Below, piece after piece: positions 6,029 to 49,727 of a DNA stretch of 64,000 nucleotides. The DNA lies in assembly GCA_001001485.1 (NCBI GenBank), contig LCKO01000002.1, positions 47,567-111,566 of the forward strand. Direction: 5' to 3'. Positions within the stretch are counted from its first letter, which is position 1. Each line of letters starts with the position of its first letter. The notes below the pieces were generated by a model. It was not told where the DNA came from. It made no database searches and saw only the letters and a program-made list of their open reading frames with translations. The position numbers and the translations under genes are program-made. The DNA is from Candidatus Collierbacteria bacterium GW2011_GWB2_45_17. Its GTDB lineage: Bacteria; Patescibacteriota; Microgenomatia; UBA1400; MFAQ01.

Positions 6029-6868
6029 ATGGATCTGGCTCGAGCGGTGTCTGCTACCATTTCCTACGCCAACTACTTTAACTTTCCTCTCTTCCCTAAA
6101 GAAATACATCACTGGTTAATTCACTCTCGTCCCGTGTCTAAGAATGTACTCAAACCATATCTGACAGAAAAAATGTCAGTCGTTAATCGTCGTTACCGTT
6201 TACAAACCAACAAGTTCGCCAAACAAAAAATTCTTCACGCCCAAAAATTAATCGGCTTATTAAAACATTTTCCAGGACTGAGACTCATAGCTCTCACCGG
6301 CTCGGTTGCGGCCAGAAACGCTAAAAAAGATGATGACATCGACCTATTTTTCATTACCACCCCCCACGCACTTTGGCTGGTTCGACCTTTGGTGATCTGT
6401 ATCCTCACCATTTTTTTTCGCCGGCGTCATCCCTTGGAAGATCCTGCTCACGCTCCCAATGCCTTCTGCCCCAATTTCTGGCTCGATACTCTATCTCTTA
6501 CTATCGATGACTCGAAACAATCTCTTTTTACCGCTCACGAAGTTCTGCAAATAATACCTTTACTGGATAGGGGAGATACCTATCAATCTTTTTTGAAAGC
6601 CAACGCCTGGACCAAAAAATACCTCGCCAACGCTTACCTCGCATCTATATCAATCTCTTCTGTAGGGGCGAATCATGATTCGCCCGCAACTATCCCCGTT
6701 TCCCTCCTCCTCGCCCCCCTTAACTTGATTTTTTTCCTTTTTCAGTTTTTGTATATGCTCCCCAAAAAAACCACCGAAACTGTCAATCTTCATGTCGCTC
6801 ATCTCCACACCACCGACTATTCGAGTCAACTAGACGCTTATCTGATCCGGGATCCATCCGGAAACTAG
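6029..6868 (+). CDS. Nucleotidyltransferase-fold protein (Pol-beta-like NTase motif)
   Basis: GSVAARNAKKDDDIDLFF matches the GS-x(9-13)-DxD NTase signature. Confidence 0.4.
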   Translation: MDLARAVSATISYANYFNFPLFPKEIHHWLIHSRPVSKNVLKPYLTEKMSVVNRRYRLQTNKFAKQKILHAQKLIGLLKHFPGLRLIALTGSVAARNAKKDDDIDLFFITTPHALWLVRPLVICILTIFFRRRHPLEDPAHAPNAFCPNFWLDTLSLTIDDSKQSLFTAHEVLQIIPLLDRGDTYQSFLKANAWTKKYLANAYLASISISSVGANHDSPATIPVSLLLAPLNLIFFLFQFLYMLPKKTTETVNLHVAHLHTTDYSSQLDAYLIRDPSGN

Positions 6869-7611: not shown

Positions 7612-8169
7612 ATGGCTGATTTTGATAAATTGGTAGTTTCCTTTCTCGTCGATGAAGTCGTTGGAGGCTTCTTTATCTCCGTCCCACCCGGACACGTTGC
7701 CTGTGTCTATGATCGTGGAGCAGGCGTCCTTAAACGCGTTTGGGGTCCAGGTCTCCATCTCAAAATTCCTTTTTGGCAGATAGCCAAGTTGTTCAACGCT
7801 CAAGTTCTGGAATACACCATCAGGCACGGATTTGATCTTTCTATCAAAGAAGTTCTTGGAGACGAACCGGTTATTGCCACCACCAAAGACAACCAGACCG
7901 TTTCTATCGAAGGTTCCATCCTTTTCCGACTTGACAAAGCCAACGCCCCTCTTCTTTGGGAGAACATCGGTGACAACTTCATCTCCAAAGTTATCCGTCC
8001 TTACTCCAGAAGTCGGATCGCCTCGGCTTTTAGCCAGTTTGACTCCAAAGAAATCGGCGTCGAGCGTTCTAAAATTGAAACTTTCCTCAAGAACGAACTC
8101 AACGAACTTTTCCGGGACAAAGCTCTGATTATCGAGAATGTGCTTTTTTCGGAAGTAAAAAAGGTTTAG
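7612..8169 (+). CDS. SPFH/Band-7 (prohibitin/HflK-like) domain protein
   Basis: N-terminal anchor then SPFH-like core (VPPGHVACVYDRGAGVLKRVWGPGLHLKIPF..ATTKDNQTVSIEGSILFR). Confidence 0.55.
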   Translation: MADFDKLVVSFLVDEVVGGFFISVPPGHVACVYDRGAGVLKRVWGPGLHLKIPFWQIAKLFNAQVLEYTIRHGFDLSIKEVLGDEPVIATTKDNQTVSIEGSILFRLDKANAPLLWENIGDNFISKVIRPYSRSRIASAFSQFDSKEIGVERSKIETFLKNELNELFRDKALIIENVLFSEVKKV

Positions 8170-8189
8170 TTTTTTTATATACTTAATCT

Positions 8190-11100
8190 ATGGCTGCCCC
8201 CAAATACTCTGTTTTACAGATTCGTCCCGCCAAAGACTCTCTTACCGGTCAGGCCGCCTTTATTGAATTTCTATCTTCCCTCAGAACTGCCCTAAAAGCC
8301 GGTTTTGTGGATCGACTTCTGGGGACTTTCGACACTATCTGTCTGGAAATAGTTAACCTAAACCAAACCACCTACTACATTCTTTCCTGTCCTGAACGTT
8401 TGGAACATCTGGTCCGTGCCCAAATCGCGGCTCAGTACCCAACGGCTTTGATCACGCCCATGACCGATTATCTATCCGACTGGCTGAGTCACGGACAGAC
8501 TTCTTTGGGTCAACTGGTTCTTACCGGACCATCTCATCTTTCCTTGAACAACACTTTGGACGACAAGGTCGACCAGATGGCTTCGATTCTAGGCAGTCTC
8601 GCTCGAATTCCGGCTGGACAAGCCGGAATTATCCAAATCTGTCTTTTTGCCGGACCCAAGAACTGGCAAAAAGCTGTCCGTTCTAGCCTTGAAATTGTTA
8701 CTCCGGCTACGGCTACCGATCCGGCCAAAAGTAAACCCAGTCCCTATAAAGCCATTATCGAAAAGAAACTAGCCTACCCTGCCTACGCTTGTGATATCCG
8801 CTTGGCCGCTATCACTCCAAATTTACACACCTCCATCCAGCTTTTGACACAGCTTGCCGCCGCTTTTGGCACCTATGCTCTTTCGGAAGGGAACAGTCTT
8901 GCTTTAAAAATTCCCAAATCTGCCGGATCTCTCGAAAAACTTCGTCGCATGATGATCGATCGTTCAGCCAAATACTCAAACCAATATCAGTACTTAAACT
9001 ATGGCGAGATAACCGCCATGTTTCACTTACCCGGTGTTTTATTGGCTCCCATCAAGGGAATTGCTTGGGGTAAGACCCTCAAGGGCGAAGCCCCGACCAA
9101 CTTGCCGGTCAACGAGGGTATCACGGCGAGCGAACAAAAACTTTATAATTTTTTCGCCGTCACCGAATACAAAAATCACTTAGCCGTCTTTGGTATGAAG
9201 AAGGGGATTGATCGTTTGCGACATACCTACATTCTAGGAAAGTCAGGTACCGGTAAATCTACCTTAATTGGCCATATGGCTATTAATGACATCCAACATG
9301 GAGAAGGGGTGGCTTTTGTAGATCCACACGGCGATGCCGCCGAAATTCTCTTAGACTATATTCCTGAAAGTCGTATTAATGATGTTGCTTATCTCGACCC
9401 GTCAGTTCCAGGAAAATCATTCTGGATGAATCCGCTTTTTGTCAAAACTCCGGCCCATGGGGAGATGGTCGCCTCGAGCATTGTTTCTATTTTTAGCAAA
9501 CTTTATGGTAATTCCTGGGGACCCCGTCTGGAATACATTCTCAGAAATACTTTATTGACCTTAGTTTACAAACCGGAAACCACCCTCGCCGATGTTCCCC
9601 GCATTCTTACCAATAAAGATTTTCGGGAGAAAGAATGCCTCATTCACGTCACCGATCCTGTCCTCATTAATTTCTGGCGGGATGAATACGACAAATACTC
9701 GGAAAAATTCCAGACCGAAGCTATCGCTCCTATTCTAAACAAAGTTGGTCAGTTTATTACCTCTCCGACTATCCGAGACATTATTAATCATCCCAAGAGT
9801 ACTGTCGATTTTGAGGCAATGATGAACGCCGGGAAAATTATTATTCTCAACCTTCCTCAAGGTAAAATCGGCGAAGACAACGCCGCCTTGCTTGGTGCTA
9901 TGTTCATTTCTCAAATTCAAATCGCGGCCATGAACCGAGCCAACATCAAAGAAGAAGATCGTCGTGAGTTTTTTCTCTATGTTGATGAATTTCAAAACTT
10001 TGCCACCAGCTCCTTTGTCAAAATTCTGTCCGAGGCTCGTAAATACAAACTTGGCTTAATTCTCGCCAATCAATATATTGCCCAACTGCCGGAAGACATC
10101 CAAAACGCGATTTTTGGTAACGTTGGTACCGTCATGAGTTACGTTATCGGGGCCTCCGACGCCGACCGCATCGTGAAGGAATTAAACAATCTCTATACCG
10201 CCGACGACCTTGTTGGACTGGCTAAGTACCAATTGGCTATGAAAATGTCTGTCGATTCCCAAGTCACCCAACCTTTCTCTGCCAACGCACTACCTCTGCC
10301 GGATACCTACATGCACACCAAGGAAAGGGTCTTAGAGGCGACTTACGCCAAATATTATCGCGAAACCAAACCGATGGACATGTCTCAAATCACTGCCCTA
10401 ATGACACCCCCTGCCAAGCGCTTCACCGAGCCGGCCTACGCCCCCAAAGCACTGAGGGAACCTTCAGCGATTGTTTCTCTTGAGGGCCAGGCCTTAGAGA
10501 ATCCTCAATCTGCAAGGCCTGGCCCTGCAGGTAAATCATCATTTCCGTCAAAGGCACCTTACGTGCCTCAGCTTCCCCCAATCATCCCCCGCACCCAACC
10601 CAACCCCTTCAAAATTCCTCCCTCCGGTAAATCTGTCATTCCGAGCAGAGTCGAGAGCGAAGCGCGGCAATCTATTCCCCAGGGCCAGGCCTTAGAGAAT
10701 CCTCAATCTGCAAGGCCTGGCCCTGCAGGTCTCTCTGACCCCTCCCTCGCCGACCTCGATGCTCTTCGCAAAGAAGGTCTCCGCCCCAGTATTGTCGGCT
10801 GTTTTCTAAACGATAAAAAAATTCTTCTGGCCTATCAAAAGTCTTTCAATCAATGGCTTTTGCCTCAGGGGGGAGTGGAAAACAAACAGAATATTAAAGA
10901 TGCCTTTTTTAAGGAACTTGCCGAAGAAGTCACCGACGACTTTCTCAAAACCTGCGACACCGACATTCAATTGGTCGCAGTTGATAAAATCGAATTTCCT
11001 CCCAGCAAGCAAGGTCTTCGCGACATGTCCACCGATTCGGGTGAACCCGTGGTGATGAAAGGCAAGTACTATTATTTTTTTGTGGCCAACTCCAAAAAAA

Positions 11101-11435
11101 CTGAAATTACTCTTGGTGCCACCGAATTTGATGACCTAAAGTGGCTAAACTTCGACGAAGCGTATAAACTAATAAAAGAGACCAATACCGGAGGAAGATT
11201 GAGGATGATCGCCAACCTCCTCCACGTTCTTAAGGACAAAAATCTCTTATCTACCAATCAACCAGAAATTCATGGACCCAAACCCACAACCCAACCTGAA
11301 AGATCAAGAGGAAGTCAGCTACACCCCTCCTCAGTCGTGGGGAACCAATCAGACGACCACGCCCCCTCCATCCTCCTCGACGACCCTCTTGCCAACCTCC
11401 TTGGCAACCCTCGAACCAGCAAACCCGCAAATTAA
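8190..11435 (+). CDS. Multidomain protein: unknown N-domain + TraD/TraG/VirD4-like coupling ATPase (AAA_10 + TraG-D_C-like) + repeat-built linker + C-terminal Nudix hydrolase-like domain
   Basis: Walker A GKSGTGKST, VDPHGD, Walker B/TraG-D_C-like FFLYVDEFQNF..LGLILANQYIAQL; Nudix box-like GGVENKQNIKDAFFKELAEEV; three repeats in-frame in linker. Confidence 0.6.
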   Translation: MAAPKYSVLQIRPAKDSLTGQAAFIEFLSSLRTALKAGFVDRLLGTFDTICLEIVNLNQTTYYILSCPERLEHLVRAQIAAQYPTALITPMTDYLSDWLSHGQTSLGQLVLTGPSHLSLNNTLDDKVDQMASILGSLARIPAGQAGIIQICLFAGPKNWQKAVRSSLEIVTPATATDPAKSKPSPYKAIIEKKLAYPAYACDIRLAAITPNLHTSIQLLTQLAAAFGTYALSEGNSLALKIPKSAGSLEKLRRMMIDRSAKYSNQYQYLNYGEITAMFHLPGVLLAPIKGIAWGKTLKGEAPTNLPVNEGITASEQKLYNFFAVTEYKNHLAVFGMKKGIDRLRHTYILGKSGTGKSTLIGHMAINDIQHGEGVAFVDPHGDAAEILLDYIPESRINDVAYLDPSVPGKSFWMNPLFVKTPAHGEMVASSIVSIFSKLYGNSWGPRLEYILRNTLLTLVYKPETTLADVPRILTNKDFREKECLIHVTDPVLINFWRDEYDKYSEKFQTEAIAPILNKVGQFITSPTIRDIINHPKSTVDFEAMMNAGKIIILNLPQGKIGEDNAALLGAMFISQIQIAAMNRANIKEEDRREFFLYVDEFQNFATSSFVKILSEARKYKLGLILANQYIAQLPEDIQNAIFGNVGTVMSYVIGASDADRIVKELNNLYTADDLVGLAKYQLAMKMSVDSQVTQPFSANALPLPDTYMHTKERVLEATYAKYYRETKPMDMSQITALMTPPAKRFTEPAYAPKALREPSAIVSLEGQALENPQSARPGPAGKSSFPSKAPYVPQLPPIIPRTQPNPFKIPPSGKSVIPSRVESEARQSIPQGQALENPQSARPGPAGLSDPSLADLDALRKEGLRPSIVGCFLNDKKILLAYQKSFNQWLLPQGGVENKQNIKDAFFKELAEEVTDDFLKTCDTDIQLVAVDKIEFPPSKQGLRDMSTDSGEPVVMKGKYYYFFVANSKKTEITLGATEFDDLKWLNFDEAYKLIKETNTGGRLRMIANLLHVLKDKNLLSTNQPEIHGPKPTTQPERSRGSQLHPSSVVGNQSDDHAPSILLDDPLANLLGNPRTSKPAN
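10484..10531 (+). repeat. Family C palindromic repeat copy C1 (GGGCCAGGCCTT-agagaatcctcaatctgc-AAGGCCTGGCCC-tgcagg), in-frame (GQALENPQSARPGPAG)
   Basis: 11-bp perfect inverted repeat arms read directly; identical copy at 10682. Confidence 0.9.
10635..10678 (+). repeat. Family A GTCAT mini-element copy A10 (gtcattccgagcagagtcgagagcgaagcgcggcaatc), in-frame (VIPSRVESEARQSIP)
   Basis: Shares GTCATTCC..GGCAATC termini with copies at 25134 and 51705. Confidence 0.8.
10682..10729 (+). repeat. Family C palindromic repeat copy C2, identical to C1, in-frame
   Basis: Exact 48-nt duplicate of 10484-10531. Confidence 0.9.
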
Positions 11436-12324
11436 ACCAGCCACATCTTTCGGAAGACCCTTGTTGGTCTCGTTAGCTCTAATTCTTTTTGGTATCTTAT
11501 TGGGTGTCCTGGCCGCCCGTTTTCTACCCACACCTAAAACCACAACTACATCTACTCTTCCTGAATCAACTCCCACATCCGAACCAACTGCCACTTGGAA
11601 AACATACACCAATCAAAAGTTGGGGCTCGAATTCATGTATCCGAATAGCTGGCTCGATCCCAAAGAATCGTCATCGTCTGCTATCACAACCTTAAATTTT
11701 GACGATAAATTAATAATCCTAAAAGGAACTTTCAGTGATATATCATCTCTTAGACCCTTCACTTTTGATGAATATGTAATTCGAAGCTACGGCGATGAAA
11801 CGCCCAGATACGACTACAATGAAATCGTCGGTTTCGTTGGAAAAAGAGGACTAGAAAAATCGGTTACGGGTTACAGTGATCTTGTTATTCTTGCCAAGGA
11901 CAACAACTCCACAGAAATTACCTCCATACTTTACCGGTTCAACCTCCAAGACGAAGACGGCAAATTATTCGACCAGATCCTTTCAACCTTAAAATTTACA
12001 GTTGAAGGATCGTCACAAGAAATACTTGGAATACAATTAACACGGTGTTGTTCTTGCCCGACAATAATTGATTCTTCACAAATCGGGGAAAATGGATGGA
12101 TTCTTTATGAACAGGGAAAAGATTATTCCGCTCTGCGGCCAAAAATATGTTCATCTCCAAATATCGGAGTGTGTGCTCCCTGTCCACCGCTCGAGACAAA
12201 ATCATTAGACTGTCAATATAATGGCAAAACCTATAAAAATGGAGAAACGGTTTCCGTCGATAAGTGCAATTCCTGCTCCTGCGACAATGGACAAGTTGCC
12301 TGCACTCTCATGGCCTGTGAATAG
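11272..12324 (+). CDS. Secreted/membrane-anchored protein with Pro/Thr-rich linker and C-terminal VWC-like (von Willebrand type C / chordin-like) cysteine-rich domain
   Basis: TM segment LLVSLALILFGILLGVLAA; C-terminus CQYNGKTYKNGETVSVDKCNSCSCDNGQVACTLMAC fits VWC spacing Cx2CxCx6Cx4C; 5' 164 nt overlap previous ORF so true start may be downstream non-ATG. Confidence 0.5.
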   Translation: MDPNPQPNLKDQEEVSYTPPQSWGTNQTTTPPPSSSTTLLPTSLATLEPANPQIKPATSFGRPLLVSLALILFGILLGVLAARFLPTPKTTTTSTLPESTPTSEPTATWKTYTNQKLGLEFMYPNSWLDPKESSSSAITTLNFDDKLIILKGTFSDISSLRPFTFDEYVIRSYGDETPRYDYNEIVGFVGKRGLEKSVTGYSDLVILAKDNNSTEITSILYRFNLQDEDGKLFDQILSTLKFTVEGSSQEILGIQLTRCCSCPTIIDSSQIGENGWILYEQGKDYSALRPKICSSPNIGVCAPCPPLETKSLDCQYNGKTYKNGETVSVDKCNSCSCDNGQVACTLMACE

Positions 12325-20722: not shown

Positions 20723-20740
20723 TATACAGATTTTCCTAAA

Positions 20741-20776
20741 CTTGAGTTCTTGATTCCTAGAGTTCTAGAGTTCTTT
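20741..20776 (+). repeat. Family B repeat copy B2 (cttgagtt cttgattc ctagagtt ctagagtt cttttt), intergenic, adjacent to A2
   Basis: Four degenerate 8-mers read directly. Confidence 0.8.
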
Positions 20777-23073: not shown

Positions 23074-24578
23074 TAAACTTTTTTAGTTGTTACTCTGTAC
23101 TCCATATATCTTCCCATCATCAGACGGGTATGGGCATCGAGACCCGGCAGAGCCGAAAAGAAAAAGCCCACCACCGGTAGCAGAATAAATTCAAAGGGTG
23201 CTAATATTTTTCTCCATACAGGTAAGTTCGTTACTTTTGGTCTGGTTTTTAAATCTATCAATATCATTGCCATCAAGCTGATTAAAGACATGGTCAGGAT
23301 AGCCGAAGATACCTGAGGCAGGGTTTTCCCGATCACGGTTCTGGAAAAAGTCGGATTCAAAAGTGGCGGCATATTCGCTCCTACTGTAATGATGAACCAG
23401 TGAACCGGCCACATAAAATGGTCCTCCATTACCTTAAAAACTCTGATTGTCTTGTCCCAAAAAGGCGCTTCATCATCCAAGATATATCTCTTGATAATGT
23501 AAGCATCATCGCTCGCCCCCCACGCCCATCTTTTTACTTGTTCATAGGTATTGGTGTAAGTGCTCCAGAATCCATTGGCTTCCGCCGCATCGGCCGAAAC
23601 CGAAATAAAGAGCGGCTCTACCTCTACCTCCCCCTTGGTCGCAAAATAGGTTTTAAAGAAAATCCGGTAATCTTCGGGGATGACATCGGTATCCCAGTAG
23701 TCAATCTCATTCATCAATCTCAAACTCAAGGTATAAGTGGAAAAATTTATCAATCTATCGGGTCTCGATAGCTGAGCCATATAAATGACACTACTCATCC
23801 TATTAAATACTCTCATCGGCCAAGGAATTCTTTCAATATTGTTATAAAAAACAATCGCTCCCTGCCAAATCTTCTTGTATCTGTTTGGATCATCGAGGAA
23901 AGAATAGGTCAGCGCCGCCAAATGATTAGGATGCAGAGCCACATCGCAGTCCACCGAAGAGATGGTTAGCTTGTCTATATTCCAATCTCTGTGTTTGTTC
24001 AGTTCTTTCCGGAACTCTTTGCCTACCCATGAGGCATTGCTGGACTTACCCACCACTTCCCCCTCCAGATTGGCTGGATGATAGGTAAAAAATAAACTGG
24101 CAAATGTATCCTTAAATTTTTCTTTGAGCAACTTTTCTCTTTCCGAGTTTATCTCTGCCCCGGCTCTCTCTTCAAAACCTATTATTGGAATAATTTGTTT
24201 GGGACCAATCGTTTGTTTCTTTAACGCCTCCAAGGTTCTTTGTAGAATCTCCCCCGGTTCTTTGAAGGTCGGTAAGACAATCACGTGTTTTACCTCTTTC
24301 CAGTCCGCAAAGCCAAAGACATCTCCCATCCAGTCATACTTTTCCCAAGCCTTTATCCGGTAATAAGACATTACCCCCGCCCAGGCCAAAGACGCCGATC
24401 GGTAAAGCCAGTAGACGTTGAAGGCGATAATGAAGTAGGCGACGCCAATCGGCCAGAAAATCGACCCCCAGATGGGGAACAAAATAAATGTCCAGCTGGT
24501 TAGTCCGGGCAGAATCTCCAAAGCTCTTTGGCTCCCGTTTGGATATCTTTTGATTAAATATCTAAGGAATATAAACAT
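23073..24578 (-). CDS. Membrane-bound glycosyltransferase family 2-like protein
   Basis: N-terminal TMs, GT-A-like core (VLPTFKEP..DCDVALHPNHL), C-terminal TMs. Confidence 0.55.
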   Translation of the reverse strand: MFIFLRYLIKRYPNGSQRALEILPGLTSWTFILFPIWGSIFWPIGVAYFIIAFNVYWLYRSASLAWAGVMSYYRIKAWEKYDWMGDVFGFADWKEVKHVIVLPTFKEPGEILQRTLEALKKQTIGPKQIIPIIGFEERAGAEINSEREKLLKEKFKDTFASLFFTYHPANLEGEVVGKSSNASWVGKEFRKELNKHRDWNIDKLTISSVDCDVALHPNHLAALTYSFLDDPNRYKKIWQGAIVFYNNIERIPWPMRVFNRMSSVIYMAQLSRPDRLINFSTYTLSLRLMNEIDYWDTDVIPEDYRIFFKTYFATKGEVEVEPLFISVSADAAEANGFWSTYTNTYEQVKRWAWGASDDAYIIKRYILDDEAPFWDKTIRVFKVMEDHFMWPVHWFIITVGANMPPLLNPTFSRTVIGKTLPQVSSAILTMSLISLMAMILIDLKTRPKVTNLPVWRKILAPFEFILLPVVGFFFSALPGLDAHTRLMMGRYMEYRVTTKKV

Positions 24579-25411
24579 TTTGTATTTTGGCTAGTGATTT
24601 CTGCCAATTTAGGCAGGTCTAAGTTGAGTTCGGTAGCGACAAACTCAGCTATTATTTTAACATTCGCGGGTATGTTCACCGTCCCACGAAGCGGTTCTGG
24701 CGCTAAATATGGGCTATCCGTCTCCAGCAGTAACCTGTCCAAAGGCACCCTCCTCAGTAGTTCTCTCAGGTTCCCGGCCGTTTTGTAGGTAATGTTTCCA
24801 CAAAAACTGACGTAAAAACCTCGCTCCAGTATCATTTCCAAAAATTCCTCACTCCCGGCAAAACAATGAAATTGCCCCCGTAGGGGCGCATCGCGATGCG
24901 CCCGCCTAAAATTATCCAATTCATCCCTCATCTCCTCCTCCGCCTCCCGCATATGGATCGCCACCGGCAGATTATTCTCCACCGCGAGCTCCATTTGCCT
25001 CCTAAAAAGCTCTATCTGTTTTTCTTTCGTCTTTTTCTCTTTATCGTAGAAAAAATCCAGCCCTATCTCTCCAATTCCCACTACCCTCTTCGAACTTTTT
25101 ATTATTTCCTCTAATTCACCAATTACAACATCTGTCATTCCGGCCAGCGAGCCGGAATCCATCCCATCGTCATTGCGAGGTCGCCTAGGCGACCGTGACA
25201 ATCCATATAAATCTTCAACATTTTCCGGGTGAATCCCCACCAGGCAATACTGCTGATATTTCTCAGCAATCTCCACCGCCAGTTTGGCATCTTCTACACT
25301 GGTCGAGGGAAAGATCACTCTCTCCACTCCGGCTTCTTGGGCCCGCTTCAGCACCTCCCCAATGTCCGAGAATCTCCTGTCCGTCAGATGACAATGCGTA
25401 TCGATTAACAT
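24554..25411 (-). CDS. tatD: TatD-family metal-dependent DNase/hydrolase with in-frame tandem mini-element insertion
   Basis: MLIDTHCHL start, GIHPEN, GEIGLDFFY, ETDSPYL; 25-aa insert LSRSPRRPRNDDGMDSGSLAGMTD encoded by two family-A elements. Confidence 0.85.
   Translation of the reverse strand: MLIDTHCHLTDRRFSDIGEVLKRAQEAGVERVIFPSTSVEDAKLAVEIAEKYQQYCLVGIHPENVEDLYGLSRSPRRPRNDDGMDSGSLAGMTDVVIGELEEIIKSSKRVVGIGEIGLDFFYDKEKKTKEKQIELFRRQMELAVENNLPVAIHMREAEEEMRDELDNFRRAHRDAPLRGQFHCFAGSEEFLEMILERGFYVSFCGNITYKTAGNLRELLRRVPLDRLLLETDSPYLAPEPLRGTVNIPANVKIIAEFVATELNLDLPKLAEITSQNTKCLYSLDI
25134..25159 (+). repeat. Family A mini-element copy A3a (gtcATTCCGGccagcgagCCGGAATc), in-frame in tatD
   Basis: 8-bp inverted arms read directly. 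Confidence 0.8.
25169..25203 (+). repeat. Family A mini-element copy A3b (gtcattgcgagg-TCGCCTAGGCGA-ccgtgacaatc), in-frame in tatD, tandem with A3a
   Basis: Internal 12-nt perfect palindrome; near-twin of 20688 copy. Confidence 0.8.
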
Positions 25412-29609: not shown

Positions 29610-30876
29610 CTGGCTGAAAAACAAACATCTCTTCTTGATTCGATGAAACCTTTTCATTTTTACGTTTGTCTGTGATGTTCGCATAAACCCAATCATAATT
29701 TACCCCGGCAAATGTTTTTAATACTGCCTCCGAAATAATTTTAGCGGCTTTTGGCGGTACAGCCATTCCAATTTGTTTTCTTACGCTTTCTTTTGAACCT
29801 TCAAACACGAAATTGTCGGGAAAGGTTTGAATCCTTGCTCTTTCTCTGTTTGTTAAGGCTCTGTTTTCACTCCAATGATATCCGTGCGTTCCCCCACCTC
29901 CACTTCCAGTAATTGTATATGACGGTTTATCTTGGTGGAGCCTTTTATAGATTTGGCTTAATTTTGCCCCTTTTACATTCAGCTGTAGATATTTAGGAAT
30001 TGCTGAGTACCAAGCATTTTCACCTGGAGGTATATACTTTAATCTTTCTTCGACAATTTTTGATTGTGCGGTCATTTCGTTATTGGGAGCGTCTCTTTCA
30101 ATCGGAGGATTTTCTATGGCGTACTTAGCTGAAATATATTTGTTTGCGGATATGGGCGCTGGAACTCTAAATTCCAACCCCAAATCTTTTCTAATTCCTA
30201 TTATTACCACTCTGTGACGAGTTTGTGGTACCCCGTACTCTTCGAATTTATATTGATGTGCCGTAATTCTGTATCCTTCTCCAGCGTCTTCTAGATCCTC
30301 CAATATTTTTTCAAAGGCCCTACCACCATTGGCACTCTGCAGGCCACTAACATTTTCAGCCATAAACCACTTTGGATTATGTATATTTATGGCTTTGACA
30401 CCAAAGTTATACAAGGGGCCAAATTTTCCATTGAAGCCTTTTTGCTCGCCTACAACACTAAAATCATTGCATGGAAACCCAAAAGCCAAAACATCAAACG
30501 ACGGAACTTTTCTGAAATCAATTGTTTCGACCGGAGCACAAACTACTTTTGACATGTCACCGTGATGGATATTTTTTGCGTATGTTTTACACGTATTCTC
30601 ATCTATGTCATTCGCCCAAACAGGCTCAATTTCGTATATACTACCCGTTGAGTCAACAATCCTCGATGATTTTGCTCCAAAGGATAATCCTCCGGGGCCA
30701 CAAAATAGTTCAGCAAGTCTAAACTTTGTCGAATTGTTTTTTTGAATTCTATCAGCTTTCACAAGATTAAACATTCGTATAATATTTGGATATATATTAA
30801 GTAAAGCAGAATAGAAATCACGTGTCAAGCGGCACGCCGTTTGGCCAGCAGTGATTTTTGAATTCGCAAGTGGCAC
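29593..30876 (-). CDS. DNA (cytosine-5)-methyltransferase
   Basis: Motif I FCGPGG, motif IV GFPCNDFS, ENV motif FMAENVSGL; real start possibly internal Met (MFNLVK) removing overlap with upstream helicase. Confidence 0.85.
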   Translation of the reverse strand: MPLANSKITAGQTACRLTRDFYSALLNIYPNIIRMFNLVKADRIQKNNSTKFRLAELFCGPGGLSFGAKSSRIVDSTGSIYEIEPVWANDIDENTCKTYAKNIHHGDMSKVVCAPVETIDFRKVPSFDVLAFGFPCNDFSVVGEQKGFNGKFGPLYNFGVKAINIHNPKWFMAENVSGLQSANGGRAFEKILEDLEDAGEGYRITAHQYKFEEYGVPQTRHRVVIIGIRKDLGLEFRVPAPISANKYISAKYAIENPPIERDAPNNEMTAQSKIVEERLKYIPPGENAWYSAIPKYLQLNVKGAKLSQIYKRLHQDKPSYTITGSGGGGTHGYHWSENRALTNRERARIQTFPDNFVFEGSKESVRKQIGMAVPPKAAKIISEAVLKTFAGVNYDWVYANITDKRKNEKVSSNQEEMFVFQPAIVAG

Positions 30877-33800
30877 AGGTGGTGTAGACTGTAGTCCGGT
30901 CGAACTTTAGCTTCCGAATATCGGCCACCGAAGCTTTGATCACTTCTTTCAGCTCGCCCACTTCCTCCTCCGTGATATTAAAGTGTTCCCTTTTGAAAAC
31001 TCCTCCCTTATCCGGCTCGATAAAGTCGATCACTGACTGGACCACTTTGTATTTGAAGGATTTGTCCAAGTCAGCCAGTATGGTATAGAAAACCAGCTGA
31101 CGCTTGTAATCCCCATCGGAATTTTTGGTATTCCCCTCTATCTCATTCCTACTTTTGGGAGCCCCTGTCTTGTAGTCCGTAAATCGAACGTGTTTATCCT
31201 CCTTACTCGTCAGATCTATCCTATCCGCCTTTCCCGACAGGGGAATATCACCGAGCATTACTGAAGAAGATAGCGAGTCTCCAAATTTCTTCTCGGTAAA
31301 TAGACTCGGCTCAAACTCTTTCTCGTATCGATCATAGTATGCCGATAATATTTCTCTCCCGTGTTCCAATCGTGTCTTGTACTCTGCTTCCGTCAGCACT
31401 TCTCTCGCGAGAGCCACTTCAAAGTCCCGCAGGAAATCTTTTTTGGATTCCAGCTTCTCACCGTTATTCAGCCCCAAATATAGTCGTTCCAGAGCAAAGT
31501 GAACCGCTGTTCCAAAACACATGGGCGGTGCCTTCGCTCGCGGAATCTTGTAGAGGTTATCCAGCTTAAATTTATACGGACACTTGAGAAACGTATTTAA
31601 AGCCGTCGGGCTAAGCTTAAAGTCTTTGATGATTTGCAGTAGATACTCTTTCTCACCCTCGTGAATGGTCGGAGCTATTGGTACTTGCATTAGAGAGGCC
31701 AGAATCTTGGCCGCTTTTTTCTCCAGTCCTAACGTTTTAATTTTCTTTATTGTTTCTTTTGGCAGGTCTGAGAGAAACAGGGATGGATACACCATCTTTA
31801 CCGAAGAGCTGTACTTGGTAGAGCCTACTATATATAGCTCCTGCTTCGCCCGCGTCATGGCGACATAAAAAAGTCTTCGCTCCTCCGCATTCTTATCCTC
31901 CTTACTCACATCCTGCTCGTTGATGATTCCCGGTGGCAATTTGATCATCTGGCGCCTGCTGGTATTTCCCCAGTGAGTATCGGCGAAGCGATAAATGTAA
32001 ACCAGTTTCCACTCCAAGCCCTTGGCCTTGTGCGCCGTTGTCAGGGTTACGGCTTTGGTATCCGACACTAGTGTTTGCTCCGGCAGTTTCAGCCCGTTCT
32101 CTTCCATAATTCCAAGGTTAAAAACATAGCCAAAAATATCTAGACCAGAAGTTGCCGCCGCTTGTGCCTTAACATCTTCATAGAGAGTGCCAAAACGATT
32201 TAACTCGATGATCGGCTGGGGGAGAGCCAGAACATAATCAAGGAGCCCCGATTCTTGAAAAATAATCTGAAACATCTCCGGCAGAGTGTGAGAGGCCGAG
32301 CGCGAGTTCCACGACACCAGCAGATTAAACTTCTCTATCAATTCTCTATCAATCTCCGGATGAGCGTCTTGCAGGCTGTCCACCAACGTCTTTCTATTCT
32401 CGTGTGCATATCTGGCTGCTCTTAAAATAGGTAGTGGCTTGAGACCTAAATACGGATAATTCAAAATAGTAAAGAGGTCAATATCATCTACCGGACCCTG
32501 TAAACCGGTCACTACTTTGAGAATCTTCAGAAACTGGCCGACCAAAGGTGTTCTCAGCACATCCGTGCCCCCTTCCAAACGATACGGAATATTTTTTTGT
32601 TTGAAGATATTTATCAGATTATCGATATCTCTGTTTTCTTTGACGATGACCGCCATCTCTTCCGGCGGGATACCTTTCTTTATCTTTTGTTTTATCGACC
32701 GGCAAACAAATTCATCTTCCAGTACGGACGAGCTAAATTTGGCCGTCTTCACCAGCACGTCCCGATATTTCACTTTGGGGTTTAAGGGTGTTTCTCCCAT
32801 AAGGGCGGCGGAAGACTGCAGTAGACTCGGCGTCGAGCGGTAGTTATCTACCAGCTTGACCGAGGTGTGTCCCGGAAATCTTTTTTCAAAGGCCAACAAG
32901 TTTTCTTTACTGGCTCCCTGAAAACGGAAGATGGAATTATGAACGACAATGCCATTGGCTATAAAATTGTGAGAGGGGGTGACTTCGAGGTCAAAAACGG
33001 TTTTCACCTTGATTTCTTCAGTTCTGGAAATTATTTTTTCATATTTAATTTCAAACCCATTTAATACTGGTAAATAATTTCCTATGAGCAGGTTGCCCAT
33101 TTGCATGACTCTTGCAGATCTATGTTGAATTGAATTAGTTCCAATGCTTGACTTTATATCGATAAAGCCAGGCAACTCTCTTTCAAGGTTTTCTGCGATA
33201 CTGAACAATTGTTTTATATCTGTTGAGGTAATCCTAAAACCCTTGCCAATATTTTTGTTTTTCAATTTGAATCCTAATTTAGATAGCTTATCTAACACTT
33301 TTTTATTTGATGTTTGGATATTAATTTCGTGAAGAACCTCTGGGTGTTCAAGAAGACCGACCTTGGCATATTTAGTCCTGTAGCTTCTAGAGCACATCAT
33401 AAAGTTAATCTTCACCCTCCCTTTTCCAAGTGTGGTGGCCTCTCTTGAGTAGTGAGGCTCCATGAGATTTATTCCCAAATCATCGGCCAGTCTTTTTGCA
33501 TTCGAAAGTGTATCAAATTCTGCAAAAATTACCTTTATGTATTCCTGAGAAACTTTACCTCCTCGCGGTTGAAACACTATGGTAGGAATCTGATATTTTA
33601 GAGAATAGATTGTTTCTGCACAGCGAGCTTCCCATTCAGTATTATGTGAGGCGATTCCAACGATTTTATCTGCACCAGATTCCGTTTTAAGTCTAATCGA
33701 CAGACCCCTGGTAATTCCCAAACGCCAACCAACTCCTTCCTTGAACATCAGATAGTTGTACCAATAGCTGGTTTCTTCTCTCGGTGGAATGTAACAGAAC

Positions 33801-34906
33801 ATCTTGTGGTTATCGGTAGCGGTAACAGTTTTACCAGATTCTGTTGTTAGGGTGATTAGTCTTACCTTTTTGGTTTGGGAAAAAACGTTTGTAACCTTAA
33901 TGTATGAGGTATATCCTTTTCCGACGGCAGACAATACAGATTCCCCAATTTGTATATCCTTAATATTTTTTTCTCCTCCTGCTGTATTTATCTTCGTGTC
34001 GCCAGGAAGGCATTGATTGTTGTCTCCCACACAAAAAATATTTGACCTTTCTCCCCAGAAAGACGACAGAGCAAACACCAATCTATTTTGTGCCGAGTTC
34101 GTATCCTGATACTCGTCTACCAGAATGTACTGAAAATTTTCTTCGTATTGTTGTAAAAAATCCGCATCATTTTCAAACGCCTCTACCACCCAATTGATCA
34201 TGTCCTCGAAATCCAGTCTCCCCAATGCTTTTAATTTCTCCTGATATTTTTCGTAGATAAAAAGGAGATCAATATTCTTATTTACCAGCGTTTCCCTTTC
34301 GGTTCTCGCCGTCTTGCTCATTCCCCCTTTCTCTATCTCAAACTCGTCTTTGAGTATCGACACCAGCTCGGAAAACTTCTTCAAAGTAATTCCTTCTCTC
34401 TTGAGGATTGAGATACTGCCGATAATATCCTTGACATACATCAGGGGTGCATTGACGGGCTTCAAGAGTTTAAAAGAATTTTTTTCCAGAACTTCGGAAA
34501 TGAGATTGACTCTTTCCAGCTCTGTCACGTTCTGCATTCCCGCCGGCCTAGCAAACCTGTCCGGATTGTCGGCAATGATCTCATTACACAGTGCATGAAA
34601 GGTGCCGATCTTCACATAGTACCCGTCCTGACCGATAAGGCTGATGAGACGTTCCTTCATTTCTCTTGCCGCCGCATCGGTGTAGGTTAGGGCAAGAATT
34701 GAGGATGGTTCGGTATCGGTTTCTTTGAGAATATTGGCAATTCGTACCGTCAGTACTTGCGTTTTCCCGGTACCCGGACCGGCCAGCACCAGTACCGGCC
34801 CTTCGATACTATCGACGGCTTTTTTCTGAGTCGGATTTAATTTTCGATAAGCGGATTCAAAGGCAACCGTTACAGGCATGCCTAATTGTATATCGAAAAA
34901 AGTCAT
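30818..34906 (-). CDS. UvrD-family helicase fused to C-terminal PD-(D/E)XK / Cas4-like Fe-S nuclease, interrupted by an intein (1362 aa precursor)
   Basis: Walker A AGPGTGKT, motif II LVDEYQDTN, motif III split VGDNNQ|intein|SIFRFQGA; C-terminal Cys4 (C..CATCEFKNHC). Confidence 0.85.
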   Translation of the reverse strand: MTFFDIQLGMPVTVAFESAYRKLNPTQKKAVDSIEGPVLVLAGPGTGKTQVLTVRIANILKETDTEPSSILALTYTDAAAREMKERLISLIGQDGYYVKIGTFHALCNEIIADNPDRFARPAGMQNVTELERVNLISEVLEKNSFKLLKPVNAPLMYVKDIIGSISILKREGITLKKFSELVSILKDEFEIEKGGMSKTARTERETLVNKNIDLLFIYEKYQEKLKALGRLDFEDMINWVVEAFENDADFLQQYEENFQYILVDEYQDTNSAQNRLVFALSSFWGERSNIFCVGDNNQCLPGDTKINTAGGEKNIKDIQIGESVLSAVGKGYTSYIKVTNVFSQTKKVRLITLTTESGKTVTATDNHKMFCYIPPREETSYWYNYLMFKEGVGWRLGITRGLSIRLKTESGADKIVGIASHNTEWEARCAETIYSLKYQIPTIVFQPRGGKVSQEYIKVIFAEFDTLSNAKRLADDLGINLMEPHYSREATTLGKGRVKINFMMCSRSYRTKYAKVGLLEHPEVLHEINIQTSNKKVLDKLSKLGFKLKNKNIGKGFRITSTDIKQLFSIAENLERELPGFIDIKSSIGTNSIQHRSARVMQMGNLLIGNYLPVLNGFEIKYEKIISRTEEIKVKTVFDLEVTPSHNFIANGIVVHNSIFRFQGASKENLLAFEKRFPGHTSVKLVDNYRSTPSLLQSSAALMGETPLNPKVKYRDVLVKTAKFSSSVLEDEFVCRSIKQKIKKGIPPEEMAVIVKENRDIDNLINIFKQKNIPYRLEGGTDVLRTPLVGQFLKILKVVTGLQGPVDDIDLFTILNYPYLGLKPLPILRAARYAHENRKTLVDSLQDAHPEIDRELIEKFNLLVSWNSRSASHTLPEMFQIIFQESGLLDYVLALPQPIIELNRFGTLYEDVKAQAAATSGLDIFGYVFNLGIMEENGLKLPEQTLVSDTKAVTLTTAHKAKGLEWKLVYIYRFADTHWGNTSRRQMIKLPPGIINEQDVSKEDKNAEERRLFYVAMTRAKQELYIVGSTKYSSSVKMVYPSLFLSDLPKETIKKIKTLGLEKKAAKILASLMQVPIAPTIHEGEKEYLLQIIKDFKLSPTALNTFLKCPYKFKLDNLYKIPRAKAPPMCFGTAVHFALERLYLGLNNGEKLESKKDFLRDFEVALAREVLTEAEYKTRLEHGREILSAYYDRYEKEFEPSLFTEKKFGDSLSSSVMLGDIPLSGKADRIDLTSKEDKHVRFTDYKTGAPKSRNEIEGNTKNSDGDYKRQLVFYTILADLDKSFKYKVVQSVIDFIEPDKGGVFKREHFNITEEEVGELKEVIKASVADIRKLKFDRTTVYTTCATCEFKNHCWPNGVPLDT
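32936..34012 (-). mobile_element. Intein (359 aa) inserted in helicase motif III
   Basis: Starts CLPGDTKI right after VGDNNQ, block B TATDNH, ends NGIVVHN followed by S; excision restores VGDNNQSIFRFQGA. Confidence 0.8.
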
Positions 34907-45766: not shown

Positions 45767-47740
45767 TCACCAGCTGTCAATATCTTCAAAATCGTCTTTA
45801 ACCGCCTCCTCAATCTCCCAATCCTGCACAATAATCCTCTTTTTTTCCCCAAATTCATCAAAACCGTCATTGCGAGACGTAGGGGTTTGATTTATCAAAC
45901 CCGTTCGGCGTGGCAATCCAGTGTCTTGAGTTCTTGGGTTCTTGATTTCTTGAGTTCTTTGGATGTTCTCATCCGATATCTCGGATAAAAACCTTGACGG
46001 TATCGATTGATGCCTCCCCCCAAAACTAAGTCTTGATCTGGCCCACGAAAGGGTCAGATTCTCTTTTGCCCTGGTCATGGCCACGTACATGAGTCTCCTT
46101 TCTTCCTCGATCTCTTCTTTACCGCCCTCAAACATCGAGCGGGAGTGGGGGAAAAGCCCCTCTTCCAAGCCCACTACAAAAATCTCGGGAAACTCCAGCC
46201 CCTTAGCCGCGTGCACTGTCATCAAAGTCAGCTTTGCGTTTGATCGGTGTTGTTTAATCTCCGACTCCGAAAGAGCCGCGCTTTCCAAAAATAGCGCTAC
46301 ACTTTCGTACTCTCCGGCCACTGCCAACAGCTCGTTTATATTTTCGATTCTTGCCACATCTTCCTCATCCCTCTCATCAAATCTTTCCATGTAATTAATC
46401 AAATTAATTATTTCCTCCAATAGAGGTCCCGGTCGCCCTTCACTCCTTCTCTTATCAGAAAGTCTCCCGAACCATTCATCAAAAATGGCGGCTTTTCTTT
46501 TTCCGATTTTTTCAATTCTCTGCCGGCTGATTTCCTCACCCGGGTTGTGAATTAGTCGTAAATAGGCGATCAAGTCTTTTACCTCCGCTCGATTATAAAA
46601 CCGCAGTCCGCCAATCAACTTGTAGGGAATATCCCGTCTTAACAGTTCATCTTCAAACGCACGGGACTGGGCATTTGTTCGATAAAGAACTGCTACTTCC
46701 TCCCCCCGGTCACCGATTTTTTTAGATTGATCCACCACATATCTTGCTTCGTCTCTTTCATCCAGGGCTTCAAATAAATTAACTTTTTGACCCATCTCTC
46801 TGGTTGCCGAAAGTTTTAAAGTCGGATGATTAGTATTATTGCTCACCACCCCATAAGCCGCGTCCAAGATATACTGGGTGCTCCGATAATTCTTAGGCAG
46901 TCCGACCGTGGTTAGTTCGGGGTAAGTTTCTTCCAGCAGTCTCAAATTTCTATAATCTGCCCCTCTAAAAGAGTAGATGGCTTGGGCGGCGTCTCCCACC
47001 GCCGTAATATTTCGTTTTTCTCCGGCCAGCAACTTTGTCAGTTCAAACTGAGCTTTGTTGGTGTCTTGATACTCATCCACCAGTATCCACTCAAGTCGGT
47101 CGTTTACCTCTTTTCTAATCCTGTCGATTTCTAACACTTTCACCGCCTTAACCAGCAAATCATCAAAGTCCACCGCGTTGTTCCGAACCAGTCTACTCTG
47201 GTACTCACTCCAAACTTTATTAATCTGCCGGTGAAAATAATCTCTCGACACGTTTTCGGCCTCTTTTAAAGTTACCAAATCGTTTTTCATCTTACTGATC
47301 ATGGCCAAAAACATCCCCGGTTTGTTTTGCTTCGGGTCAATAGAGAGATCTTTAAGCACCTTTTTCATCACGGACTCGGAGTCTTGACTATCAAAAATTA
47401 CAAAATGGGGGCTCACTCCGACCTCCACTCCGTAGTTTCTCAGCAGTTTGGCGCAAAAAGTATGAAAAGTACCGGAAAATCCCAGATCAATCTTTTTGCC
47501 CGCCGAATTGGATGGTTTTGTGCCGATCTTTTTGATTCTTTCTTTCATCTCACCGGCCGCTTTATTGGTGAAAGTTAACAAGGCTATTTTCGTTGGGTCG
47601 ACATTTTTTTCTTTGATCAACCATGCCACTCGGTGGATCAGCACTCTTGTTTTTCCCGAACCTGCTCCGGCCAGAACCAAAAGAGGACCTTCTCCATGAG
47701 TTACCGCCACCAGCTGTTCTTTATTGAGAATATCTACCAC
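45767..47740 (-). CDS. ATP-dependent DNA helicase PcrA/UvrD/Rep family (C-terminal tail carries in-frame A+B repeats)
   Basis: AGAGSGKT Walker A, LVDEYQDTN, VGDAAQAIYSFRGA motif III intact, 657 aa. Confidence 0.9.
   Translation of the reverse strand: MVDILNKEQLVAVTHGEGPLLVLAGAGSGKTRVLIHRVAWLIKEKNVDPTKIALLTFTNKAAGEMKERIKKIGTKPSNSAGKKIDLGFSGTFHTFCAKLLRNYGVEVGVSPHFVIFDSQDSESVMKKVLKDLSIDPKQNKPGMFLAMISKMKNDLVTLKEAENVSRDYFHRQINKVWSEYQSRLVRNNAVDFDDLLVKAVKVLEIDRIRKEVNDRLEWILVDEYQDTNKAQFELTKLLAGEKRNITAVGDAAQAIYSFRGADYRNLRLLEETYPELTTVGLPKNYRSTQYILDAAYGVVSNNTNHPTLKLSATREMGQKVNLFEALDERDEARYVVDQSKKIGDRGEEVAVLYRTNAQSRAFEDELLRRDIPYKLIGGLRFYNRAEVKDLIAYLRLIHNPGEEISRQRIEKIGKRKAAIFDEWFGRLSDKRRSEGRPGPLLEEIINLINYMERFDERDEEDVARIENINELLAVAGEYESVALFLESAALSESEIKQHRSNAKLTLMTVHAAKGLEFPEIFVVGLEEGLFPHSRSMFEGGKEEIEEERRLMYVAMTRAKENLTLSWARSRLSFGGRHQSIPSRFLSEISDENIQRTQEIKNPRTQDTGLPRRTGLINQTPTSRNDGFDEFGEKKRIIVQDWEIEEAVKDDFEDIDSW
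45866..45919 (+). repeat. Family A mini-element copy A6 (gtcattgcgagacgtaggggtttgatttatcaaacccgttcggcgtggcaatcc), in-frame in helicase tail
   Basis: GTCATTGCGAG..TGGCAATC termini with internal hairpin gggtttgat-ttatcaaaccc. Confidence 0.75.
45925..45960 (+). repeat. Family B repeat copy B3 (cttgagtt cttgggtt cttgattt cttgagtt cttt), in-frame (RTQEIKNPRTQD), adjacent to A6
   Basis: Read directly; same frame usage as tsaD copy. Confidence 0.85.
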
Positions 47741-47904: not shown

Positions 47905-48597
47905 GTGAAATACGTTATTGGCAACTGGAAAAGCAATCAAAATATCAGCCAATCTCTTATTTGGCTGGATGGTTTGTCCGCTCTCCACCCCAAGTTCTCT
48001 CCCGAAGTTACCGTTATTCTCTGCCTGCCTTTTACGGACATCGCCTCCTTCAATCACAAAATTTCCGACCTGAACTTACCCATTATCTCCGGCTCTCAGA
48101 ACGTCTCTCATCTGGCCCCCGGTAAACATACCGGCGAAATCACCGCCAACATGCTTTCCGAACTGGTGAACTACTGTATCGTCGGTCACTCAGAACGCCG
48201 TCAGGAATTTTCTGAAACCTCTGAAATAGTCGCCCAAAAAGCCCGCCTCTTACTCGAAAGCTCCATCACCCCCATTATTTGTTTGGACACTCCCTATCTC
48301 GATGAACAGATAAAAGCTCTTTTTACTTGCGATGTGGACGTCTCTCGTTGTTTCTTTGTTTATGAACCTATCTCAGCCATCGGTATCGGGAAACCTATCG
48401 ATTCTGTCTCAGCCAATCACATCGCTAACCAAATCGCCTTTTTAACAGACAACGCCGCCCCGATTCTTTACGGTGGCTCGGTTAGCTCGGACAACGCCGC
48501 CTCTTTCGTTCGGGAAAACTGTATCGATGGCGTCCTGGTGGGTACCGACAGTCTCGAACCCACTTTATTTGCCGGTATTATTACTAGTCTTTCTTGA
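47905..48597 (+). CDS. tpiA: Triosephosphate isomerase (start placed at in-frame GTG; longer ORF from 47773 overlaps divergent helicase start)
   Basis: VIGNWKSNQ, CIVGHSERR, YEPISAIGIGKP; tataat at 47892-47897 just upstream. Confidence 0.8.
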   Translation: MKYVIGNWKSNQNISQSLIWLDGLSALHPKFSPEVTVILCLPFTDIASFNHKISDLNLPIISGSQNVSHLAPGKHTGEITANMLSELVNYCIVGHSERRQEFSETSEIVAQKARLLLESSITPIICLDTPYLDEQIKALFTCDVDVSRCFFVYEPISAIGIGKPIDSVSANHIANQIAFLTDNAAPILYGGSVSSDNAASFVRENCIDGVLVGTDSLEPTLFAGIITSLS

Positions 48598-49713: not shown

Positions 49714-49727
49714 ATCGCGATGACAAA

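Follow-up and report, generated by a model that had tools for sequence, protein, structure and literature searches.

An ancient fusion of a VirD4/TrwB-like ATPase with a Nudix domain in Candidatus Collierbacteria

How does an ATPase resembling the coupling proteins of type IV secretion systems (T4SSs) come to end in a Nudix hydrolase-like domain, and what might such a protein do? The question is raised by an open reading frame (ORF) of 1081 amino acids (aa) in a 64,000-nucleotide (nt) stretch of contig LCKO01000002.1 (positions 47,567 to 111,566; assembly GCA_001001485.1) from Candidatus Collierbacteria bacterium GW2011_GWB2_45_17, hereafter the window. The initial annotation, made from the sequence alone, proposed that the two domains were originally separate genes, joined by insertion of mini-elements or loss of a stop codon through a junction built entirely of repeats. 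As judged from sequence comparison, this is a real, anciently fused gene of the tiny, uncultured groundwater Collierbacteria, and public databases already contain its architecture, filed under automatically assigned labels ('NUDIX domain-containing protein', 'MutT'). The overall explanation that we favour, on a slight balance of probability, is that of an inherited, soluble, orphan VirD4/TrwB-like ATPase that captured a Nudix domain, handles polynucleotides and received the repeats later. No description of a coupling-protein ATPase combined with a Nudix domain was found in the literature, in keeping with the annotation's remark that no such architecture was known.

The reading frame, annotated as a single ORF at 8190-11435 on the forward strand, is indeed uninterrupted, and runs from an N-terminal DUF8128 domain through the ATPase, a linker and the Nudix domain to a C-terminal tail (Table 1). 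Since the protein sequence of the tail is conserved in relatives, no frameshift is hidden after the Nudix domain. The motifs pointed out in the annotation all lie where it placed them, with GKSGTGKST at residues 350-358, VDPHGD at 377-382, FLYVDEFQNF at 595-604, LGLILANQYIAQL at 621-633 and GGVENKQNIKDAFFKELAEEV at 894-914. Both domain calls were upheld by hidden Markov model searches, and further by NCBIfam models, profile comparison and predicted folds.

In the ATPase, aa 344-641 match the Pfam family TrwB_AAD_bind at 23.4 bits (cut-off 20.5), and the scores of relatives reach up to 72 bits. TraG-D_C, DUF87 and T4SS-DNA_transf fell just under their cut-offs in the 1081-aa protein and above them in relatives. 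The label AAA_10 was not borne out, as this family gave no match in the 1081-aa protein and matched one relative only, below the cut-off. NCBIfam returned weak matches of the ATPase part to TraD/VirD4-type models. In hhalign comparison, a family profile built from 63 diverse members was aligned with R388 TrwB over 283 columns (probability 96.9%, E 1.4e-10), and with R388 TrwK/VirB4 at the P-loop only (probability 2%). The AlphaFold model of aa 1-735 (mean predicted local distance difference test score, pLDDT, 88.1) comprises an N-terminal alpha/beta domain, a P-loop domain and a helical insert. Foldseek searches of the PDB with this model found TrwB with a template modelling (TM) score of 0.63 on the target and a root-mean-square deviation of 5.4 Å, and Cag-beta/VirD4 with a TM score of 0.57; DotL, HerA and the DndH C-domain were further matches of the ATPase. 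Full-length TrwK/VirB4 had the best E-values, yet a TM score of only ~0.3. These comparisons mark the ATPase as a genuine homologue of VirD4/TrwB.

Two hallmarks of coupling proteins are failed by this protein, namely the membrane anchor and the linkage to T4SS or relaxase genes. The place of the anchor in canonical coupling proteins is occupied by DUF8128, a domain assigned to the window protein through its homologues, PF26449 not being listed for the two closest full-length proteins (P0001 and P0002). No transmembrane helix was predicted, the highest 19-residue Kyte-Doolittle mean being 1.44, and the N-terminal domain can be aligned across 38 diverse family members. No relative of the DUF8128 profile was found among PDB sequences, where only chance matches to apolipoprotein appeared, and the term 'DUF8128' was not found in the literature searched. 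The identification of DUF8128 as a VirB4-like N-terminal domain was considered and rejected, because its profile reached 0.3% against the N-terminal domain of TrwK and the TM score is low despite the top E-value of TrwK; a likeness between the two domains is a structural lead that the Foldseek ranking of the model may offer. As to linkage, no relaxase, VirB4 or other T4SS gene was found in the conserved neighbourhood, either in the window or in the fetched related loci.

The Nudix domain had been annotated as the C-terminal ~150 aa; such a domain is present, but its real span is aa 856-1025, with a 56-aa tail behind it. Pfam NUDIX was matched at aa 867-996 (E 1.4e-9; 38.5 bits against a cut-off of 21.1), and the AlphaFold2 model of aa 843-1037 has a pLDDT of 93.4. 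Foldseek gave 401 PDB matches at E <= 1e-3, the best 50 of which all belong to the Nudix family, with Escherichia coli RppH at the top (E 7.6e-10, TM 0.69), followed by NudI, NudB, NudC and diadenosine tetraphosphate (Ap4A) hydrolases. A profile of 19 Nudix domains matched the lupin Ap4A hydrolase at E 2e-11 and RppH at E 3e-9. RppH is also the best NCBIfam Nudix family, with its curated models scoring 31-33 bits (best 32.6) against cut-offs of 116-259; the stand-alone relative P0124 scored 58.6 bits against a cut-off of 118. Because these scores lie far under the cut-offs, the domain is regarded as RppH-like but not as an RppH orthologue.

Three stand-alone Nudix proteins of 172-173 aa (P0123, P0124 and P0126) share 42-44% identity with the fused domain and are collinear with it over the whole domain, including the first and last helices, indicating that a whole gene was captured. 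The word-index search with the Nudix domain only, which gave 55 candidates and missed the fused proteins, is unfit for counting stand-alone relatives. P0124, a protein of 173 aa with a canonical box, is encoded on contig L088 (1323-3338), where a gap of 4 nt separates its gene from a RelA/SpoT-family gene downstream (TIGR00691, 557 bits); this putative operon suggests a link between this Nudix subfamily and alarmone metabolism.

Most of the catalysis by Nudix enzymes is done by the three glutamates of the REUXEE core. All three (E909, E912 and E913) are retained in the window protein, and the lysine that was annotated in place of the canonical arginine is confirmed. Among 85 distinct Nudix boxes of homologues, 29 are fully canonical, 30 others keep the three glutamates and 26 lack at least one of them, and the positions of the first glutamate and the arginine vary widely. 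From these box statistics, hydrolysis is likely in the window protein, which keeps the three core residues, yet not universal to the fusion. Outside the box, R860, G863, R865, P866, C871, W889, P892, Q893, G894, G895, F936, P937, M956, G958, K959, Y961, F963, G1002 and R1005 are invariant.

The age of the fusion was addressed by a homologue search over 5.8 billion proteins, which gave 2033 matches at E <= 1e-5; the best 120 of these 2033 were analysed. A Nudix box, and with it the same fused architecture, is present in 99 of the 120, with identity down to ~42%; these proteins belong to Collierbacteria and other Microgenomates, and the linkers of most of them are free of the window's repeats. 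Most of the 120 have precomputed matches to both PF26449 (DUF8128) and PF00293 (NUDIX), often together with coupling-protein or DUF87 families, and the named sources among them include Candidatus Collierbacteria, Microgenomates and Woesebacteria. Alignment showed that the fusion is kept without the 50-nt element of the window linker in P0006, P0010, P0022, P0037, P0063 and P0074, and that repeat-free homologues share a linker core, PY.PQLPP...PNPFKIPPS, equivalent to window segment 10557-10625. As the same fusion and the same linker core occur without these repeats in many relatives, the very observation that the annotation had named as a sign of an ancient fusion, the fusion is old and the repeats are later, which refutes the annotated origin by mini-element insertion or stop-codon loss.

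Gene order was compared among the fetched loci of the clade with S1 and Nudix forms that reach far enough. It runs from SBP_bac_1 through a 270-280-aa protein, YidC, Band_7 and the fused gene to GroES and GroEL, sometimes with one to three extra genes before GroES, and is common to the Nudix, S1-plus-Nudix and S1-only forms. The position is thus that of a housekeeping gene and not of a mobile element. In the same position, Nudix is replaced by an S1 domain in P0119 (L003/L004) and preceded by one in P0115, and the Shapirobacteria orthologue (L011) carries a low-complexity tail only. Separate ATPase and Nudix genes, as the annotated origin would have them in relatives, were not seen: none of the fetched Nudix-less positional orthologues (L003/L004, L011) has a separate Nudix gene beside the ATPase, and the closest stand-alone Nudix genes are located elsewhere, one beside relA/spoT. 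The Band_7 gene was considered as a general partner of the ATPase family and set aside, since its adjacency is confined to the S1/Nudix clade and is genomic context only. Between the SBP_bac_1 gene and yidC in the window lies a gene for a 279-aa protein (6029-6868, forward strand) with a faint match to Pol-beta nucleotidyltransferases and a hydrophobic C-terminus, which accompanies the YidC/Band_7/ATPase block in those related loci that reach that far upstream.

The linker, annotated as consisting wholly of repeats, does so in part. Its three repeat elements fill ~140 of ~390 nt, about one third, and an older core sits between them. The exact 50-nt repeat pair, for which 0 matches are expected by chance, would form an RNA hairpin at each copy (free energy -34.8 kcal/mol, z -5.2), and the copy of a second palindrome family between the two folds poorly (z +1.0). 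A third, related hairpin copy lies at 49665-49714, between the convergent LytR_cpsA_psr (48594-49667) and DUF2298 (49728-51680, reverse strand) genes. In relative P0003 (L006/L007), the hairpin element occupies the same two linker positions and is also found directly after groEL (L006 13762-13801). With copies between convergent genes and after groEL, the element looks like a REP-like (repetitive extragenic palindrome) or terminator-like palindrome. The hairpins were rejected as internal terminators, since a consensus scan calls none at either linker copy.

The second mini-palindrome family (CGTCATTGCGAG...GTGGCAATC) has five copies in the window, at 10635, 25169, 27349, 45866 and 62870, against 0.06 expected. 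It is in frame in a TatD-like ORF (24554-25411, reverse strand; peptide ...GLSRSPRRPRNDDGMD...) and in a UvrD-like ORF (45767-47740, reverse strand; peptide ...LPRRTGLINQTPTSRNDG...). Arrays of an 8-nt unit (CTTGAGTT / TCTTGAGT) are present at 2367-2434, 20725-20776 and 45909-45968, and one of them adjoins the mini-palindrome within the UvrD-like gene. Mini-palindromes of other kinds are translated within the same linker in other lineages, and SPVIA... and VIPAQAGIHP are examples of the resulting peptides.

The three palindromic mini-elements were inserted in frame after the fusion, around the older conserved linker core, and a linker that presumably lacks a fold of its own can accommodate them. 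Recombination between the identical 50-nt copies could then remove 66 codons. Contig L005, from a Rifle groundwater metagenome and the same population, is 99.9-100% identical to window 7906-11435 apart from one missing 198-nt unit, bounded by the 50-nt repeat, and encodes the 1015-aa protein P0001; its shorter linker is either a real recombinational deletion in the population or an assembly collapse. The locus clearly illustrates how palindromic mini-elements can become part of the reading frame in a linker that is presumably disordered, and how a 66-codon length variant arises between identical copies.

The ATPase belongs to a very large family distributed across the Patescibacteria. When one genome per species was scanned, at least 509 relatives were recovered from Microgenomates, Saccharibacteria, Dojkabacteria, Paceibacteria lineages and Peregrinibacteria, with taxon labels that are wrong in some record titles. 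An exhaustive HMMER search gave a family size, in clusters at 50% identity, of 5,732 at E <= 1e-30, rising to 14,105 at the looser threshold of E <= 1e-10. The typical member has a core of 725-750 aa, alone or with a long basic, Gln-rich or Pro-rich tail; other members carry an S1 domain or a treble-clef zinc finger at the C-terminus, and some are without DUF8128. In Saccharibacteria and some Microgenomates, a DUF8128-ATPase paralogue has topA upstream in 29 loci and dprA in 13. In the topA-linked loci (L021, L027, L029, L030 and L042-L087), dprA is often found further upstream, and ftsQ, murG, ftsW and mraY lie on the other side on the opposite strand. Two tandem DUF8128-ATPase paralogues are present in L036, L037, L039, L041 and L061.

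Much of bacterial diversity is accounted for by Patescibacteria. Their VirD4-like genes are described as having no known role (PMC12102498). A 2025 survey counted 5,713 VirD4-type homologues in 2,918 patescibacterial genomes, about two per genome, with 148 of the 5,713 near virB4 and relaxases almost absent (PMC12102498). Chromosomal VirB4 systems of Patescibacteria are reported there to be essential for epibiotic growth, and the VirD4-type homologue of S. epibionticum is non-essential for it, unlike the other T4SS genes; the authors stated that exaptation of VirD4 homologues cannot be ruled out (PMC12102498). DUF8128, the S1/Nudix fusions and the YidC/Band_7/GroES gene order are not mentioned in that work (PMC12102498).

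In the explanation that we favour, the gene would be a vertically inherited chromosomal member of a soluble 'orphan' ATPase family, unlinked to virB4 or relaxase genes. An ancestor of Collierbacteria and neighbouring Microgenomates would have gained a whole stand-alone gene of the RppH/NudH/Ap4A-hydrolase type, which became joined to the C-terminus of the ATPase via the Pro-rich, presumably disordered linker. The ATPase would form a TrwB-like ring whose nucleoside triphosphate (NTP) hydrolysis drives the translocation or remodelling of a polynucleotide, and the C-terminal module, be it S1, zinc finger, basic tail or Nudix, would hold or process that substrate. The tethered Nudix domain would cleave a pyrophosphate linkage at a 5' end, be it that of a triphosphate or of an Np(n)N cap. 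RNA is its most plausible substrate, because S1 and RppH-like domains occur together. The C-terminal modules are the first sequence-level clue to the substrate of these orphan motors, pointing to nucleic acid and possibly RNA, and they suggest 5'-triphosphate (5'-ppp) RNA, Np4-capped RNA and Ap(n)A as testable substrates.

Several observations weigh against this explanation. Ring formation, the nucleic-acid substrate and the Nudix activity are all inferred for the family. Measured against GX5EX7REUXEEXGU, the window Nudix box is non-canonical (first Glu to Gln, Arg to Lys and last Gly to Thr), and with a core glutamate lost in 26 of the 85 homologue boxes, hydrolysis is not uniformly required of the fusion. 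The gene of one stand-alone relative precedes relA/spoT by only 4 nt, a hint of free nucleotides and not RNA as the substrate, the paralogues beside topA and dprA fit DNA as well as RNA, and S1 domains also bind single-stranded DNA. A bolder form of the same explanation, in which the whole family descends from a motor of conjugation that was co-opted (exapted) to handle RNA as a housekeeping task, with a role like that of Rho or a degradosome helicase, is judged distinctly unlikely. There the S1 and RppH-like Nudix domains of this clade would mark RNA with a 5'-triphosphate or a cap as the substrate, and transcripts would be threaded by the motor while the Nudix domain readied their 5' ends for decay; if true, an RNA-metabolism machine would have been built out of a type IV coupling protein.

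Other explanations differ mainly in what the Nudix domain or the motor would do. The Nudix domain may act on free nucleotides (Ap4A, (p)ppGpp, NTPs or NAD-type compounds) as a tethered local regulator or house-cleaner, a possibility that we think unlikely. In its favour, the profile search ranks a plant Ap4A hydrolase first, the fold is close to those of NudI and NudB as well, and P0124 is probably co-transcribed with relA/spoT across the 4-nt gap; against this, RppH leads both the fold matches and the NCBIfam families, an RNA-binding S1 domain replaces or accompanies Nudix in positional orthologues, and the relA/spoT link is known from one contig. It is doubtful, and to our judgement improbable, that the domain serves this lineage chiefly as a pseudoenzyme, a module for binding or scaffolding without catalysis. 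The 26 boxes without a core glutamate, the high variability of the first Glu and Arg and the invariance of residues beyond the box (the R860 to R1005 set) would fit such a module, but E909, E912 and E913 are kept in the window protein, as are their counterparts in 59 of the 85 boxes, 29 of them fully canonical. A working type IV coupling protein that feeds DNA or protein to a patescibacterial VirB4-type machine, with Nudix as an accessory or co-delivered module, is considered quite unlikely. Such a role would agree with the true VirD4/TrwB homology of the ATPase, with the essentiality of chromosomal VirB4 systems for epibiotic growth in Patescibacteria (PMC12102498) and with actinobacterial conjugative elements, in which the gene of an FtsK-like translocase often has a Nudix gene (Pif, which acts in conjugal immunity) as its neighbour (PMC3218068). 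It is countered by the absent membrane anchor, by a conserved neighbourhood without T4SS or relaxase genes, by the small fraction of homologues near virB4 (148 of 5,713) and the non-essential copy in S. epibionticum, unlike other T4SS genes (PMC12102498), and by C-terminal modules of relatives that bind nucleic acid (S1, zinc finger, basic tails) and are not relaxosome-binding tails.

Two further explanations carry very little weight. An anti-phage defence protein, with a HerA-like ATPase and a Nudix effector, is highly improbable: PADLOC matched the mad8, HerA and DndH ATPase models, and Foldseek found the DndH C-domain and HerA, but these matches are limited to the generic ATPase core, the neighbouring genes have no PADLOC matches, and the gene sits in a fixed housekeeping order between yidC/Band_7 and groES/groEL and not in a variable island. 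To the recent joining of two separate ATPase and Nudix genes by mini-element insertion or stop removal we now give almost no credence. The three repeat elements in the junction, and such elements in frame in other window genes, first spoke for it; they are outweighed by the many lineages, with identities as low as ~42%, in which the fusion lacks these repeats, by the conservation in repeat-free homologues of the linker core between the repeats, and by stand-alone relatives that lie elsewhere, with no adjacent Nudix gene in L003/L004 or L011.

The features of the locus are collected in Table 1. Downstream of the fused gene, an ORF at 11272-12324 on the same strand overlaps its end by 164 nt when read from the first ATG, and its true start is probably later. 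The product has a hydrophobic segment near its N-terminus and a Cys-rich end with near-threshold matches to VWC and a pacifastin inhibitor, unusual in a bacterium. Elsewhere in the window, a gene at 30818-34906 on the reverse strand encodes a 1362-aa AddA/UvrD-type helicase-nuclease (UvrD-helicase, UvrD_C, PD-(D/E)XK) with an intein, the Hint and Intein_splicing matches of which lie at ~aa 296-657, within the helicase domain. GC skew is negative in 31 of the 32 2-kb bins of the window, and the cumulative skew falls near-linearly to -5.0; the same strand disparity is known from complete Collierbacteria, Beckwithbacteria and Ch65 genomes (PMC7143001).

Table 1 Features of the fused gene and its upstream neighbour (window coordinates)
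Feature	Position	Strand	Basis and remarks
Band_7/SPFH gene, 20 nt upstream of the fused gene	7612..8169	+	Pfam Band_7, E 2e-22; adjacency in L001-L010
Complete ORF, 1081 aa	8190..11435	+	DUF8128, coupling-protein-like ATPase, linker, Nudix, tail; stop codon 11433-11435
N-terminal alpha/beta domain, DUF8128 (PF26449), aa 1-315	8190..9134	+	precomputed Pfam match on homologues
VirD4/TrwB-type nucleotide-binding domain, aa 319-725	9144..10364	+	Pfam TrwB_AAD_bind, hhalign, Foldseek
Walker A / P-loop GKSGTGKST, aa 350-358	9237..9263	+	G350, K351, S352, G353, T354, G355, K356 and T358 invariant in 79 homologues
All-alpha insert within the ATPase fold, aa 421-547	9450..9830	+	AlphaFold2 secondary structure; TrwB alignment spans the region
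Walker B region FLYVDEFQNF, aa 595-604	9972..10001	+	L596 to T606 invariant in 79 homologues
Pro-rich linker (19% Pro), presumably disordered, aa 726-855	10365..10754	+	composition; length and sequence variable among homologues
Palindromic mini-element copy 1, in-frame translation (E)GQALENPQSARPGPAG	10483..10532	+	exact 50-nt repeat
Older linker core PYVPQLPPIIPRTQPNPFKIPPS, aa 790-812	10557..10625	+	common to homologues without repeats (alignment)
Degenerate second-family mini-palindrome, translated VIPSRVESEARQS	10635..10674	+	family GTCATTSCGAG...GGCAATC
Palindromic mini-element copy 2, identical to copy 1	10681..10730	+	198 nt (66 codons) downstream
Complete Nudix domain, RppH/NudH/Ap4A-hydrolase-like, aa 856-1025	10755..11264	+	Pfam, AlphaFold2, Foldseek, profile search
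Nudix box G-x5-Q-x7-K-E-L-A-E-E-V-T, aa 894-916	10869..10937	+	read from sequence
C-terminal low-complexity tail, aa 1026-1081	11265..11432	+	start NQP..HG..P...PE.SR ... GSQLH conserved in relatives (alignment)

Compared with known systems, the protein shares its fold, the Walker A and B motifs and the all-alpha insert with TrwB/VirD4/TraD (R388 TrwB, 1e9r/1e9s; Cag-beta, 8dol; DotL, 6sz9; TM 0.57-0.64). Unlike these, it has a soluble DUF8128 domain of 315 aa in place of the N-terminal transmembrane anchor and a Nudix domain at the C-terminus instead of a relaxosome-binding tail, and its gene occupies a housekeeping position without linked relaxase, VirB4 or T4SS genes. HerA, FtsK and VirB4 belong to the same ASCE P-loop superfamily, and Foldseek found HerA and full-length TrwK/VirB4 at E 1e-12 to 1e-15; the profile match to VirB4, however, is confined to the P-loop (2%), the TM score to VirB4 is ~0.3 and DUF8128 is without profile similarity to the VirB4 N-terminal domain. 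The gene fits the orphan VirD4 homologues of Patescibacteria (PMC12102498), a likeness drawn from their description, so that the 5,713 homologues may be another set. Its Nudix domain has the fold of E. coli RppH (NudH/YgdP) and the plant and bacterial Ap4A hydrolases (4s2x, 6d1q, 1f3y), with the three core glutamates kept in the window protein and a canonical box in many homologues; unlike these enzymes, it is fused to a 725-aa ATPase, has 16-23% identity to them and belongs to a group in which the box is degenerate in some lineages. A likeness by function is seen in Pif of Streptomyces pSAM2 and other actinobacterial conjugative elements, a Nudix hydrolase whose action is tied to that of an FtsK/HerA-superfamily DNA translocase (PMC3218068). 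There, by a mechanism that is unknown, the role is conjugal immunity and, unlike in the window fusion, Nudix hydrolase and translocase are separate genes on a mobile element.

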